This document shows positions 18,880 to 44,060 of a stretch of DNA of 64,000 nucleotides, piece after piece; positions within the stretch are counted from its first letter, which is position 1; every line of letters starts with the position of its first letter. Under the pieces are notes generated by a model. That model did no database searches. It worked only from the letters and a program-made list of their open reading frames with translations, and was not told the origin of the DNA. The translations under genes and the position numbers were made by a program. Source of the stretch: Sphagnum compactum (Eukaryota). The stretch lies in contig OZ234493.1 of the NCBI GenBank assembly GCA_965153455.1, positions 14,560,213-14,624,212 on the forward strand, in the 5' to 3' direction.

Positions 18880-19764
18880 CACTACTAGAAATTCTGTCAT
18901 ATGCAACCACACCACATGCAACTGGGATGCAACTGCCTGTCGCATGCAGTTTTTGCAACTATGCGCCCTTTTTGGGTGTGTATGCAACTATGGTGCAACT
19001 ATAATCGCCTTCATCCCAACCTTTGGATGAGTTCTGTGATATATCACCATATATATTTGATATATCATCGTATATCATTGATATGTATATACTCATAGTT
19101 GCATGTGCAACCAAAATATGCCAACTATGGTCTTTTGGTAAGTTAGGTACACATTTTTTTTAGGCATGTCTAGGATTAGGGTTGCCTACAAATGATAATC
19201 CCATTGATAAGGTTTAGGATATAGGTGAAAAATAACCTAATCTATTTTGCCACACCTAAAATAATGTATCTATCCCCAACTTTTAGTAGCTTGCTCCACA
19301 AACATTTAGAAGACAATTTACAACTGAAGATATCAATTTTACTTACAATAATTTATCACTTGATGAAGCAAAACAATGTATATGTGTATTCAACAAGAAG
19401 GTCCAATTAATCCCCTCAAGATTACAATATGTGGGTTTGACATGTGGAAATAATCTATTTTATTCCAACAATTATCCAGTACAAGTGAAGGTCTCATGGC
19501 ACATAGTCCATGTAATGCATGAGTTGGTTCCAAAGTCAGCCCTGATAGTCCTGATGGGTAGACATGTGACTAAAGCACACATCAGAAACCAGACATGAAA
19601 ACACATGCTATTGTCCCCCTTAACAACCATAACCAGACAATATGCAAACCCTAGAAAGGGTTACCCAAAGAATATCTCAGAATAAGAAGCTCTATCTGAA
19701 CCCCAACTTCACTCAATACATAATTTCTTGCTCATAAATGTTATTACAGCCAACTACAGAATGT

Positions 19765-22013
19765 TTAACCCATGGCATACTTCTGGCTCCAATTCCGTGC
19801 TGTGGCTTCATATTTGGCCCTGTCAGTCTTGTACATGTGAGCGATTTCGGGTACCAGTGGATCGTCAGGATTGGGGTCAGTCAACAGCGAGCATATTGAG
19901 AGCAAGACCTGCCCCACATATCAAGACTTGTTAATTTCCACATCTCAACCATGAAAACCAAGCAAAACTTTAGAGGTCCAGGTTAGTCAGAAAAAATAGG
20001 ATTAGAATACAAGGTTCAGGGTTAAGCACAAAGTTCATACCAAATTTGCATGTTAAGTGGTAAGAGAAAAGTATTTCAGATATATGCACTTGAACTGAAA
20101 TGTGCCGACTAACCAGCACAGATCCAGAACAGGGCTTTCCGAACACATTAGAGAGCCCATAAGGAACATGAAGTCCAATATTCCTGTTGATCCATCCAAG
20201 TTCCAACAATCCCATAACAAAGTACTTACTCCTACATTAAAAAACTGGAAGAAACCCTATTCAAAATTGCATAGGGACACTCCAGGTACAAATCTTGGAA
20301 TAACAACTCTGGAAACACACCAGTGACCAGCAATGCTCATTATTGATACACCTATTTAAACGTGGTTGGGGATTGAATACTAACAACCATCTGAAATGCA
20401 CACCGACATGGATGAGGATGAGCAAAGAACCTTAGAAATTGTCAGTGCTCCTTGAGGAGATCCAAGCAAATACTCCCATTGCTATTGATATTAGGATGAA
20501 ACACCTTCGTTCTAAATGCAACCTGCGCAATTCCAAGGAACCAAGAACAAAATGATACATCTTTGTGGGTAACAACTTGGTCATATGGACTTCACATGGA
20601 ATAGTGACCTAAAATGGGCCACCTGGAAGTCCTTCAGCCTCAAACCTGATACAATTTCCCGTAGCACCTACCCACTCTCATAATGTTATGACTGCATACA
20701 TTGTCATGTTGCCTTCAACTGACTGTTGTGGGAAATTCTCTGCAATTTCACAGATATGTGGTTAAGTCAGATCCCTTCCATCTGTTTTGGACATGTGGTT
20801 CATTGTACCCATTGACTAGACACTGACAAGAGTATGTGGTGACATTTTCCATCTCTAGATTACAGGACACAACTCATGGGTCATGGAGAGGTAGTTTGAG
20901 AGAAGAGTATTAACAGACATTTCCATCTGTAGATTAAAGGACAACCGTTATGAAGCATGGAGGGGTAGTCTGGGGGAAGAGTATTAACAGACATTTCCAT
21001 CTCTAGATTGAAGGACAAACCTTGGGGGGCTTGAAGGGGTAATCTGGAGGAAAATGAATCATAACCAAAAATACACCTCCAGCAAAGGGACTATCAGGTG
21101 GACCCATGATTGTTGCTTGCCAATGGAACATATCTTTTGCCACAGGACCTGTCACACCCCCCACAACCATCAAGGAAACATCAATTTCACATAACTTCTT
21201 GAGAACAATGGTATGAAAAACATAGACTGACTGAAACACTAGACTAGTCATTTCTACCCAAAGGACCAAAAGCCACAATTAGCAATGAATGCAAAAGCAC
21301 TCACACAGGATGCTCTTAGAAGACCCCGGCATTCTTTTTGTGTGCATGCATGAAGGAGGTCAAATGTATTAAGTTAAGGTGTTGTTCTACTAAGAGATCA
21401 TTACGGATATAACCAGAATATAGAGAAGAAGAAAAAAACCAGTACTAGAACATGAAAGACCTGTTCAGCAAGGGTCAAAGGAGAGCATAATGCTGTCCTC
21501 ATCAAGCATCCTGAAACAAAGCTTGGTTGATGATGCTCCCTGATGGCTGCTCAAAGTACAAATGACAAAACAAAGAAGAAAGAACAGACCACAAATACAT
21601 AAGCATTGTGAACTAAACCCTAACAAAACAAGCTTGGTTGATGATGTGCCATGATAACTGCTGCCTAAAGCACAGTCACAAATGACTGAATACAGAAGAG
21701 ACCAAAAGACACATACGGATTTTGAACCAACTAAACCCTAGAGAATGCAGCACCTTTCAAAAGCCATTCTCTACATAGTCACAAACTCACAGCCATATCA
21801 CGCAGTCACGAGGTGATCAGATACGACCATTTCTTCAACTATCAAGACAAAAGATTACACACAGGAAAAGTAATACTTTCAGAACGACAAAAATAGTGGC
21901 GAGAGATTGGGACGACGGGGGTAAAAGGAAGGAGGATGAGCACCCGGCTCTGCATGATGTAGGCGGGTCCTTTCGAAGATCTTTCAACTCTTCGGAATTG
22001 TCTTGGAGGCCAT
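19765..22013 (-). pseudogene. Captured E2 ubiquitin-conjugating enzyme (UBC8/9/10, UBE2D type), 4 exons with introns, disrupted
   Basis: MASK../ELKDLRKDPPTSCRAG (frameshift), [17 protein letters not shown]...[32 protein letters not shown] (short deletion), [27 protein letters not shown]...YAMG*. Confidence 0.9.
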
Positions 22014-22239
22014 ATGGAAACAGTAGTAACAACTTCAAGTCCTTCAAGTCTCAGGTGCAACAGCAAAAACGAAGCTGCAAATCTCAATGCGTCCATACAA
22101 CAACAGTAGCAGTAGGAGCAGGAGAGCCACAGCTACGACAATTGGGAGGAAGAGACAGCTACGAAGAAGAAGAAGCTCTTGGAGAAACAAACCCTGCCTT
22201 TCGGGGAGTTCTCGGCGGTTTCACACCGTCCATAGTCAC

Positions 22240-23012
22240 ACTTCCTTCCCTCTATTCCCCAAAATTGTAAACATGACCAACACTTCCCTTGTGCAGCACA
22301 ACCTCAAACGCTTCAGCCACATCTTCACAGTACAGGTAGCTTCGCACATTACATCCATCTCCATGGATGGGGAGGGGCTTCCCCTGGCCAAAAGAATGAA
22401 TGTGGGAATGAGCTTATCTGGGAATTGGTTTGGTCCATACACATTATTGCCTCGTCTGGTGATGACAGGCAACCCATATGAGCGGCCATATGCCATCACC
22501 GGCATTTCTGCACCAGCCTTGGTGGCTGAGTAGGGATTTGTGGGAAGCAGTTGCGATGCTTCATGGTTTCCAACAATTGCATCAGCCTCAGTCTCTCCAT
22601 AGACCTCATATGTGCTCACATGAATGAAGCGGTGGATAGTGCCTGTCACTTTGCATGCCTCCAGCAACACATGGGTCCCATAGATGTTGTTCTTTGTGAA
22701 CTCAATACTGTTGCCAAATGAGTTATCGACATGAGTTTGGACGGCAAAGTGCATAATGGTGTCAATACCCTCAGTAATGAGAAGGTAGTTCACAAGATCT
22801 GCACTCCCAATGTCACCTTTCACAAACTTGAAATTCTTGGAAGACTTGGAGGGCAACAGATTCTTCAAGTTGGAGCAATAATCCAACTTGTCTAGCACCA
22901 CAATCTCGTAATGTGGGTAGTTGCGCATCAGTCTGTTGGCAACATGAGATGCAATGAATCCTGCTACACCAGTTATCAAGATGCTTTTGGGAGTGTATGT
23001 GGCTTCCCCCAT
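22240..23012 (-). pseudogene. RHM1: Captured 5' fragment of UDP-rhamnose synthase (N-terminal UDP-glucose 4,6-dehydratase domain)
   Basis: YTPKSILITGVAGFIASHV, LDKLDYCSNLKNL, THVDNSFGNS, PTNPYSATKAGAEM, GNNVYGPNQFP; frameshift near 22380 and truncation near 22250. Confidence 0.92.
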
Positions 23013-42295: not shown

Positions 42296-42713
42296 GTTAG
42301 GGGCACTATAGGTCGAGAGCTAGTTGATTTTTGAATTCTAAAACCAACATATTTTGAGTAGTTATGGCCTTTTTTGGGTGTCAATGATATTTTAGACATT
42401 GTCAGGTTTAATAGACCTGATAGAGTGATGGATTCCTGGTTGCTGTAATTGGAACAATGGCCATTAAACCCCATTGGATGGAATTTCAATGTTATGACAA
42501 AAGGTAATTTGTTGGTTAAGTAACTGCAGATTTGTTACATGCAAAATTGCAAATCACAAATCTATGTGTGTAATATTTATTGGTTGATTTTTCAGCACTA
42601 GAGGAATATAATAGAGACCTGATATGTATAATGTACATTAGTTAAACTAGGTGTAGGTGTGCTCCTAATGCTAATGTGGTAATGGTTAATGCTACTAATC
42701 CTAATACATCATA

Positions 42714-42852
42714 ACCCTAAACCTTAATCCTAACCCTAAACCCTAACCCTAATCCTAACCATAAACCCTAACCCTAATCCTAACCCTAAACCCTAACCCT
42801 AAAACATATTTAACCTGTATGATGGAAAACCCTAACCCTAAACGTAACCCTA
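42714..42852 (+). repeat. Interstitial telomere-like repeats (CCCTAA/CCCTAAA/TCCTAA mix)
   Basis: accctaaaccttaatcctaaccctaaaccctaaccctaatcctaacc... Confidence 0.85.
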
Positions 42853-43712
42853 AAACATAGGTCAGCAGTTGCATATGCAATTCACCAGTTGCCTATGCAA
42901 CTAAATCTAATGGTTGTTGTGCTGCCACGTGGCGCACTATAACCGGTCTGATGAAAAACCCTAACCCTAAAACATGGGTTAGCAGTTGCATATGCAACTA
43001 AATCTAACGATTGTTGTGCTGCCACGTGGCGCACTATAAACGGTCTGATGAAAAAACCCTAACCCTAAAACATGGGTCAGCAGTTACATATGCAACTAAA
43101 TCTAACGGTTGTTGTGTTGCCACGTGGCGCACTATAAACGGTCTGATGAAAAACCCTAACCCTATTCCTAAAACATGGGTTAGCAGTTGCATATGCAACT
43201 AAATCTAACGGTTGTTGTGCTGCCACGTGGCGCACTATAAACGGTCTGATGAAAAACTCATGTGCCTAACCCTAATCCTAAAACATGGGTCAGCAGTTGC
43301 ATATGCAACTAAATCTAACGGTTGTTGTGCTGCCACGTGGCGCACTATAAACGGTCTGATGAAAAACCCCAACCCTAACCCTAAAACATGGTTCAGCAGT
43401 TGCATATGCAACTAAATCTAACGGTTGTTGTGCTGGCACATGGCGCACTATAAACGATCCGATGAAAAAACCACAACCCTAACCCTAACCCTAACCGTAA
43501 AACATGGGTCAGCAGTTGCATATGCAACTAAATCTAACGGTTGTTGTGCTGCCACGTGGCGCACTATAAACGGTCTGATGAAAAAACCCTATTCTTAACC
43601 CTAACCGTAAAACATGGGTCAGCAGTTGCATATGCAATTAAATCTAACGGTTGTTGTGCTGCCATGTGGCGCACTATAAACGGTCCGATGAAAAACCCTA
43701 ACCCTAACCCTA
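42853..43712 (+). repeat. CACTA subterminal array: 8 units of ~100-115 bp separated by telomere-like linkers
   Basis: Unit aaacatgggtcagcAGTTGCATATGCAACTaaatctaacggttgttgtgctGCCACGTGGCgcactataaacggtctgatgaaaaa(ccctaa)n. Confidence 0.92.
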
Positions 43713-44060
43713 CACATGTTCGCATACAATTCGGTGAGCTAATTTGCATGTAACGCAGTGTGAACGCAACCGTGTAGTTGCATGCAGTCGCATTTACAAC
43801 CGTAGGTATAGAATATGGGTGGATGAAACCGTATAACCCAACCGTATATACTTGCTCATATACGTATTGTGACATGCAACTAAAAGCGCCTGCAACTGGT
43901 TTTATGCAACTAGGCGAATTTGCAGTTGCATGTGTCGCATGCAACTGAAAATGCAACCAAACCAGTTGCATACGGCAGTTGCAAAATGGCAAATTTCTAG
44001 TAGTGTTAATAATTATATTAGTTAATTAGTTAACTAGTTAGGTGTCACTTATTTACTTAA

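Follow-up and report, generated by a model that had tools for sequence, protein, structure and literature searches.

In elements of the En/Spm (CACTA) type the DDE transposase TnpD is encoded between the 5' end and the TnpA gene. Its DDE core is the best conserved CACTA protein and normally lies in long exons. The maize elements dSpm and Spm-w are deletion derivatives of En/Spm which have lost the TnpD sequence, have kept TnpA exons and the ends, and need an autonomous element. Two further non-autonomous CACTA families, Tpn1 of Ipomoea nil (associated with Kawasaki & Nitasaka 2004) and Tgm-Express1 of soybean (associated with Zabala & Vodkin 2007), reportedly share their subterminal regions and are said to contain captured pieces of many different host genes, introns included; both are angiosperm families with elements of a few kb. 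In flowering plants the capture of genes by CACTA elements is known to contribute to exon shuffling and to the spread of pseudogenes. In the main text describing packFinder any element with a transposase match is called autonomous, and the term Pack is kept for elements without transposase-related coding sequence (PMC8903248). Passages of another paper use the Pfam families Transposase_24 for tnpA and Transposase_21 for tnpD (PMC8195511), and the main text of the Sphagnum genome paper gives CACTA as the most abundant classified repeat type in this genus, with 6.8% of the genome (Healey et al. 2023, PMC9946827). The DNA treated here is a stretch of 64,000 nucleotides (64 kb) of contig OZ234493.1 of the peat moss Sphagnum compactum, called the window below, to which all coordinates refer. 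A CACTA transposon spans positions 18880-44005 of the window, a total of 25,126 bp, exactly the interval proposed in an initial annotation made from the letters alone. It is very probably a single non-autonomous Sphagnum CACTA element which keeps its ends and a TnpA-type gene and has host DNA in the place of TnpD.

The ends of the element and the features next to them are the following.

18877-18879, left TTA target-site duplication
18880-18893, plus strand, left (5') terminal inverted repeat CACTACTAGAAATT, from the first C of which five copies align, with unrelated flanks
18880-19250, plus strand, left subterminal region with TGCAAC motifs, common to sibling ends (sibling alignments reach 19218-19288, 76-96% identity)
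42712-42802, telomere-like run of short CCCTAA-type repeats inside the element
42957-43712, subterminal tandem array with a 110-bp unit in 7.1 copies, each unit with a GTTGCATATGCAAC inverted motif pair
43711-44005, minus strand, right subterminal region with the 3' terminal inverted repeat (43992-44005); about 27 sibling loci align among the matches listed
44006-44008, right TTA target-site duplication

The terminal inverted repeats (TIRs) are perfect (14/14), with CACTACTAGAAATT at 18880-18893 and its reverse complement at 43992-44005. From 18877 the left boundary reads TTA followed by CACTACTAGAAATT, the right boundary reads AATTTCTAGTAGTG followed by TTA up to 44008, and a repeat finder reports the same inverted pair. 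A 14-mer inverted pair alone is not significant in 64 kb, and independent support was sought. The exact TIR occurs in the window at the two ends of the element only. With up to two mismatches it is found six times, compared to 0.70 times expected, and none of 100 shuffled sequences reaches six. TGCAAC or its complement GTTGCA occurs 8 times in the first 230 bp (7 TGCAAC and 1 GTTGCA) and 9 times in the last 230 bp, out of 124 occurrences in the whole window. The element thus shows the marks of the CACTA superfamily, namely CACTA...TAGTG TIRs, a target-site duplication (TSD) of 3 bp and subterminal motifs in direct and inverted orientation; the matched TIRs and the TTA duplication of the initial annotation are borne out by the sequence itself, the shuffles, the subterminal motifs and the sibling ends. 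The G+C content is 27-30% in the flanks compared to about 40% inside the element. The 110-bp array is also found in five siblings (L047, L050, L072, L095, and L111). Runs of the plant-telomere-like CCCTAA(A) type also stand at the start of every 110-bp unit and at 28052-28082. A match to NDK inside the tandem array (E 0.0029) is weak and was taken as chance.

About 8 kb lie between the 5' end and the TnpA-like gene. They contain a ubiquitin-conjugating enzyme (UBC) gene, the 5' part of an RHM gene, a HEAT-repeat fragment, and DNA without a domain match.

19768-22013, minus strand, captured UBE2D/UBC8-type ubiquitin-conjugating enzyme gene, whole coding region with introns (from Pfam, PDB, and translations)
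22013-21943, minus strand, UBC exon 1, with the ATG at 22013 and a 1-bp frameshift
about 21155-21015, 20525-20448, and 19911-19768, minus strand, further UBC exons
near 20400-20440, minus strand, small extra UBC exon, judged by eye only
22255-23012, minus strand, captured 5' part of RHM / UDP-glucose 4,6-dehydratase, first ~272 codons, no intron seen, frameshift near 22390-22400
24202-24477, plus strand, HEAT-repeat-like open reading frame of host origin, ending in a 46-nt inverted repeat (24374-24419 / 24427-24472)
24478-28200, internal DNA between the cargo and the TnpA-like gene, in which Pfam finds no domain and no GH3

Three minus-strand open reading frames (ORFs) match the Pfam family UQ_con with E values of 1e-13, 3.8e-8, and 1e-9, and the closest PDB structures are plant UBC8 and the human E2 enzymes D2/D3 (E 3.5e-24). 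The ATG of exon 1 and the stop codon of the terminal exon, below 19768, are both found, so the whole UBC coding region with its introns has been copied. What had been annotated as a piece of a UBC gene is hence indeed UBC, extending from the ATG at 22013 to the stop. In the intron beside UBC exon 2 a 74-bp unit is repeated 2.9 times (20841-21052) and partly repeats the end of that exon. UBC exons 2 and 3 are covered by contigs from DNA runs under two organism labels which leave out the intron between them (20525/21015-21019); such contigs could come from parental or paralogous UBC genes in which the exon borders are the same and the intron differs.

The RHM fragment matches GDP_Man_Dehyd with an E value of 2.2e-46 and is 91% identical to the UDP-glucose 4,6-dehydratase CY35_15G027800 of Sphagnum magellanicum over 79% of the ORF, which substantiates this part of the proposed cargo. 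It carries substitutions at positions which we take to be otherwise conserved in the family. Both verified cargo genes are frameshifted pseudogenes, and both lie on the minus strand, opposite to the TnpA-like gene. For the HEAT-like ORF, previously assigned to DNA-PKcs, Pfam gives DNA-PKcs_N at an E value of 0.071 (11.6 bits) among similarly weak HEAT-type matches, and the Atlas ranks this family 11th, behind other HEAT/ARM families. PDB searches with the ORFs 24202-24477 and 24505-24870 gave nothing relevant. The search for longer homologues covered proteins of up to 2,000 amino acids, a size at which the DNA-PKcs protein of 4,000 amino acids could not be found. According to passages of PMC10419180 Sphagnum fallax has a DNA-PKcs gene. 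An origin of ORF 24202-24477 from the N-terminal region of DNA-PKcs is possible and unproven. The inverted repeat at 24374-24472, in which 46 nt are 98% complementary around a loop of 7 nt, is located exactly at the end of this ORF and forms a hairpin-like junction of the sort which template switching would leave. The fourth gene of the proposed cargo, GH3, was not recovered: in 23.3-27.7 kb Pfam gave no GH3 match at E values up to 5, nor did any sequence there match GH3 motifs.

The TnpA-like gene covers 28.2-41.5 kb on the plus strand in several exons.

28268-28573, 31582-31722, 31827-32423, 32602-32706, and 32772-32939, plus strand, 5' and central exons (tblastn of the Sphagnum models P0004, P0007, P0012, and P0013)
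40860-41456, plus strand, 3' exon with the C-terminal 199 residues of model P0004, no known domain

The exon 31827-32423 sits within an open frame of 337 amino acids (31470-32480), the longest of the element. A homologue search with this ORF yielded 13 proteins, all named ones being from Sphagnum species, and 8 of 14 close homologues match Transposase_24. A profile search of 1.84 billion representatives found 287 proteins at E values of 0.001 or below. From these, 33 were picked for Pfam, the longer ones and a few covering the C-terminal part; 20 of the 33 match Transposase_24 at an E value of 0.01 or below. It is the sole match in 19 of them, P0070 having also a weak match to PRP3, and one remote homologue, P0078 with 30.9 bits, is above the cut-off of the family. 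Transposase_24 is the only recurrent match among relatives of the ORF. An ORF with 42% identity is present in two siblings, L034 and L098, some 2.2 kb inward of right-type ends, which ties the gene to the transposon lineage. For the C-terminal exon (40833-41456) all Atlas scores were below 0.9. The gene is accepted as TnpA-like, with the caveat that its similarity to Transposase_24 is remote, if consistent, mostly below threshold, and confined to the beginning of the profile. Contigs of a metatranscriptome run (X15), from which carry-over of DNA is possible, lie with about 97% identity on parts of the cargo and of the TnpA-like ORF, and one of them runs unspliced through a UBC intron.

Between the exons of this gene lies a palindrome of about 6.2 kb, so the gene is at least interrupted. 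The TnpA gene of the initial annotation is present as a TnpA-like gene, as judged by remote Transposase_24 similarity, and is split by this insertion.

33683-39838, nested palindromic insertion of 6,156 bp, arms 33683-36224 and 37297-39838, with GCAAT at 33678-33682 and 39839-39843
36225-37296, minus strand, palindrome core of 1,072 bp, consisting of two joined mitochondrial-type pieces (~36227-36956 and 36955-37300)

The arms show a single mismatch in 2,542 positions and have the terminus TGTGAGCCATGG. The same terminus recurs with unrelated flanks in three other contigs (L057, L078, and L118), which marks the arms as a separate mobile or repeat family. The second piece of the core holds the 5' end of cox1 (ORF 36854-37288, Pfam COX1 E 8.6e-12). 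Public contigs match the pieces of the core in part and then diverge, one of them being an RNA contig with a depth of 4768. The core is read as mitochondrial DNA which would have served as filler, an addition to the cargo list of the initial annotation. A PDB search with the palindrome-arm ORF found nothing. GingerRoot was considered as the nested element and rejected, the duplication being 5 bp here compared to the 6 bp given for GingerRoot in the text of PMC6839031. In L057 (2208-4849) a stretch 30% identical to the TnpA-like ORF directly adjoins the end of a palindrome-arm repeat copy; CACTA elements and their neighbourhood may be preferred sites of the arm family.

The palindrome is also the place where the assembly itself has to be considered. 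The internal structure could in part be an artefact, with the palindrome and perhaps the cargo junctions being chimeric and the true element smaller. The near identity of the arms, organellar DNA in the centre as chimeric reads can give, and the lack of an independent contig bridging the arm/core junctions among those listed all speak in this direction. The palindrome is, however, bounded by the 5-bp direct repeat GCAAT, and on the outside it stops precisely at the family terminus known from the three other contigs, which is not what an assembly error would produce. In addition DNA contigs from runs under three organism labels cover the cargo, including the RHM pseudo-fragment, with about 1% differences. 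An assembly artefact is thus very unlikely.

The lack of TnpD was followed through the stop-to-stop ORFs of the element. Of 449 such ORFs of at least 32 amino acids, 408 were scanned against Pfam, including all 122 with 60 or more amino acids and 286 of the 327 with 32-59 amino acids; the 41 short ORFs left out belong to 37270-39838, a stretch that repeats 33683-36224 as its reverse complement. Neither Transposase_21, representing TnpD, nor Transposase_23 matched any of the 408 ORFs, in a scan which a highly diverged TnpD or one split into exons of less than 32 amino acids would escape. The three transposase profiles proposed for checking the initial annotation hence yielded a weak match for Transposase_24 and none for the other two, and no TnpD domain that would contradict it was found inside. 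The element is without a TnpD domain and hence non-autonomous. Outside the element 101 ORFs of at least 70 amino acids were without a match to Transposase_21, Transposase_23, or Transposase_24, a weak DUF659 being the sole transposon-linked match.

It could be argued that an autonomous CACTA is present whose TnpD is too diverged or too finely split for Pfam, the supposed cargo merely lying beside it. The TnpA-type gene is barely recognised by Pfam, bryophyte CACTA proteins might be diverged in general, and about 3.7 kb (24478-28200) are without any domain match. Against this stand the lack of any frame longer than 337 amino acids and of any match to Transposase_21 or Transposase_23 in the 408 ORFs even at E values of 0.01-0.05, the 5' 8 kb which are largely explained by host genes on the opposite strand, and the conservation and long exons which the DDE core of TnpD normally has. 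A hidden TnpD is accordingly highly improbable, and the element is best described as a TnpD-deleted CACTA in which the lost interval has been filled with transduplicated host genes.

The insertion of the element as one unit can be deduced from its surroundings, since an older element of this superfamily encloses it.

17070-18879, left part of the older 2.7-kb host CACTA, TIR CACTAGTAGAAATT at 17070-17083, TSD TTT at 17067-17069
44006-44879, right part of the older host CACTA, TIR at 44866-44879, TSD TTT at 44880-44882

The host CACTA (17070-44879) begins with CACTAGTAGAAATT, ends with its near-perfect inverse, and has TTT on both sides. After subtraction of the 25-kb insert, of which it was the target, it measures about 2.7 kb and is non-autonomous. 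In a comparison with metagenome contigs the homologues of window positions 44880-44006 and 18878-17792 were found contiguous in one contig (L112). The junction there joins window position 18878 to 44006, with a single triplet TTC compared to the two copies of TTA in the window. L112:10447-12937 is an uninterrupted paralogue of the host CACTA, the left part being homologous to L112:11315-12937, and has a TSD of its own which differs from the TTT of the window. This different TSD marks another copy of the host CACTA, so that the contig represents a paralogous empty site (79-87% identity). As its flanks are contiguous with one triplet, the 25,126 bp entered as one unit, cargo included. Synteny of the cargo in relatives lacking the TIRs, which would have spoken against the initial annotation, was not seen, since this copy without the TIRs lacks the whole 25 kb together with the cargo.

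Movement of the loaded element after capture is indicated by a sibling (L004) with a flank unrelated to that of the window and thus at another locus. Its sequence follows the left end of the element up to 19218, resumes at 21336 with a short microhomology (TTT.G) at the junction, and aligns to 21336-22083 with 96% identity until the contig ends. This includes UBC exon 1 with the same frameshift. The loaded element has therefore moved, and the frameshift, being shared by both copies, predates their split. As exon 1 is kept and the other exons lie in the missing block, L004 is taken as a deletion derivative of a UBC-carrying ancestor; a deletion in L004 would be favoured over a later addition in the window copy. 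That the two ends belong to two separate neighbouring elements with ordinary chromosome between them, the 25 kb never having moved as a unit, is hardly credible, for although this arrangement matches the intermediate proposed for Pack-CACTAs in passages of three papers (PMC6379663; PMC8903248; PMC13317346) and would need no internal TIR remnants if terminal deletions had occurred, it is contradicted by the empty site without the whole interval and with one triplet instead of two, by the TTA duplication flanking the outer TIRs only, by L004, in which this left end and this cargo are linked at a different locus, and by a self-comparison showing no internal copies of either end.

The run contigs on the cargo point in the same direction as L004. 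Those over the RHM pseudo-fragment do not represent the parental gene, because the fragment and the best RHM of Sphagnum are just 91% identical at the protein level. In several contigs positions far apart in the element stand next to each other, such as 19255 and 22870 with 12 filler letters between them, or 25255 and 33233, as would be expected of derivatives with internal deletions. The depths of the run contigs are uncalibrated and do not represent copy numbers.

Sibling copies were looked for with a pattern consisting of the TIR, eight arbitrary nucleotides and TGCAAC in moss-associated metagenome contigs, of which at least 120 match. The counts given here cover 120 loci among the matches listed, with contigs totalling 830 kb. 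In 14 loci the exact pattern is paired, delimiting 13 copies of 118-190 bp and one of 2,291 bp, and a further 107 ends are single. A looser search for the mate TIR combined with a test for the TSD adds four copies with the size of miniature inverted-repeat transposable elements (MITEs), three of 2.3-2.5 kb, and one of 3,314 bp (L055); all eight copies found by the loose mate TIR have matching 3-bp TSDs. This amounts to 17 complete MITE-sized copies (118-190 bp), four of 2.3-2.5 kb, and one of 3.3 kb. The MITE form, most commonly 152 bp long, has the same TIR and is seen in L008, L013, L018, L031, L036, L043, L057, L105, L112, and others. Other host genes are found in 3 of 33 sibling inner regions, where in open-ended regions the ORFs may lie outside the element. 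The complete copy L055, with TSD TTA, carries a PUB ARM-repeat fragment (ARM_PUB E 2e-37) and a cytokinin-dehydrogenase fragment (Cytokin-bind), L030 carries U-box and cytokinin-dehydrogenase (Cytokin-bind, CKX) pieces, and L049 a fragment of Rpb2 domain 3. The search for siblings suggested with the initial annotation thus led to sibling ends in at least 120 contigs and to cargo which differs among siblings, with UBC shared by L004. As in Pack elements a multicopy family is present, shown by these ends and by the shared cargo, and host DNA is contained in the element in the form of UBC and RHM, along with the mitochondrial DNA.

Several results weigh against the reading of the element as a CACTA with a retained TnpA-type gene and with host genes in the place of a lost TnpD, and should be considered together. 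The ORF 31470-32480 itself matches Transposase_24 with an E value of 0.0021 and 18.6 bits, below the Pfam cut-off of 28.7, and the Transposase_24 alignments span just the first 30-66 of 138 profile positions, with the exception of P0095 where they extend to 100. Two of the four cargo genes initially proposed, DNA-PKcs and GH3, were not verified. L004 is the single sibling shown to share the cargo, with 748 bp of shared sequence before the contig ends, and the polarity of its difference to the window copy is set just by the retained UBC exon 1. As to an autonomous partner, Transposase_21 was found in none of 57 ORFs of at least 150 amino acids across the 120 loci listed and in none of 130 ORFs of at least 75 amino acids in the 33 sibling inner regions. 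To these points belong also the missing contig across the arm/core junctions and the kinds of TnpD which would escape the ORF scan, both mentioned above. The core of the initial annotation, a bryophyte CACTA with the TnpA-type gene kept, TnpD gone and host DNA in its place, is nevertheless supported by the data.

With its 14-bp TIRs, the TGCAAC subterminal motifs, and the 110-bp array the element has kept its cis elements, and it would transpose by a cut-and-paste mechanism using TnpD from an autonomous relative. We infer such mobilisation in trans by an autonomous CACTA, as well as a serial capture of the cargo. The UBC copy still has its introns, which shows that capture took place at the level of DNA. 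The cargo may have been captured by template switching or gap repair, with which the hairpin-ended fragment and the filler DNA are compatible, or by re-mobilisation of two neighbouring elements together with the DNA between them. The latter route has been proposed for Arabidopsis Pack-CACTAs in passages of PMC6379663, PMC8903248, and PMC13317346. The deletion derivatives might have arisen by microhomology-mediated repair.

A much wider interpretation would be that Sphagnum CACTAs include an active, transcribed lineage which shuffles whole genes and fragments (UBC, RHM, PUB, CKX, Rpb2, and possibly DNA-PKcs) in a haploid-dominant bryophyte, with large "half-autonomous" members supplying TnpA and relying on others for TnpD. 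This is unlikely on the present data; if true, it would constitute a division of labour for TnpA and TnpD between elements which is not described for Pack-type transposons.

The remaining part of the window contains ordinary host genes and ORFs around the element (2523-3743, 5886-7322, 9080-9466, 44949-45200, 53499-53771, and 59348-61335, a DUF659 fragment being in the same list). Among these neighbours are a polyketide-cyclase/START-like gene, an ORF of 479 amino acids with a weak DUF1668 match, a gene with an Sgf11 domain, an acylphosphatase, and a three-exon cytochrome P450. The DUF659 fragment, a hAT-associated domain, lies immediately beyond the host CACTA. At 48513-50362 there is another small non-autonomous CACTA, 1.85 kb long, with the TIR CACTATGAGAAA, the TSD AAA, and TGCAAC-rich ends; its interior (49300-49725) is about 72-75% identical to many 2.3-kb elements with the CACTACTAGAAATT TIR in the metagenome loci.

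In the titles and abstracts listed for Pack-CACTAs and for CACTA elements of Sphagnum and bryophytes no description of gene capture by CACTA elements in a bryophyte was found; supplements may hold more. The main text of PMC8903248, supplementary tables aside, contains no mention of Sphagnum, Physcomitr, Marchantia, bryophyte, or moss. The annotation of CACTA elements in the same genus (PMC9946827) gives a total for the superfamily, and in the main text searched gene capture is not described. CACTA gene capture is here documented in Sphagnum by clean boundaries, a related empty site, a sibling with the same mutated cargo, and siblings with other cargo. Gene-like copies such as the full UBC gene and the 5' half of RHM will be called genes by prediction programs and may inflate gene families of peat mosses. 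The element also represents a compact record of repair events, with deletions at microhomologies, a fragment ending in a hairpin, and mitochondrial DNA filling a palindrome. The behaviour as such is familiar from flowering plants, and the case is solid and instructive, if not surprising to a transposon specialist.

The Sphagnum element resembles the angiosperm families Tpn1 and Tgm-Express1 in its ends and its cargo, and differs from them by its 25 kb, its TnpA gene, and the whole coding region of UBC; to our knowledge neither family has a retained TnpA gene or has captured a whole coding region. The elements dSpm and Spm-w are known as simple deletions without host genes, whereas here the lost interval is replaced by host DNA. 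Pack-CACTAs have been described from Arabidopsis (Catoni et al. 2019, PMC6379663) and from maize and rice (Gisby & Catoni 2022, PMC8903248), with the same CACTA TIRs and 3-bp TSD, DNA from several unrelated host loci, no DDE transposase, and shared ends with differing cargo. Unlike these, which are mostly small and free of transposase-related coding sequence, the Sphagnum element has 25 kb and a TnpA-type gene and comes from a moss. Because this gene is retained, it falls outside the strict definition of a Pack-TYPE element. Strictly speaking it is not a textbook Pack-CACTA but a hybrid, part deletion derivative and part Pack element.

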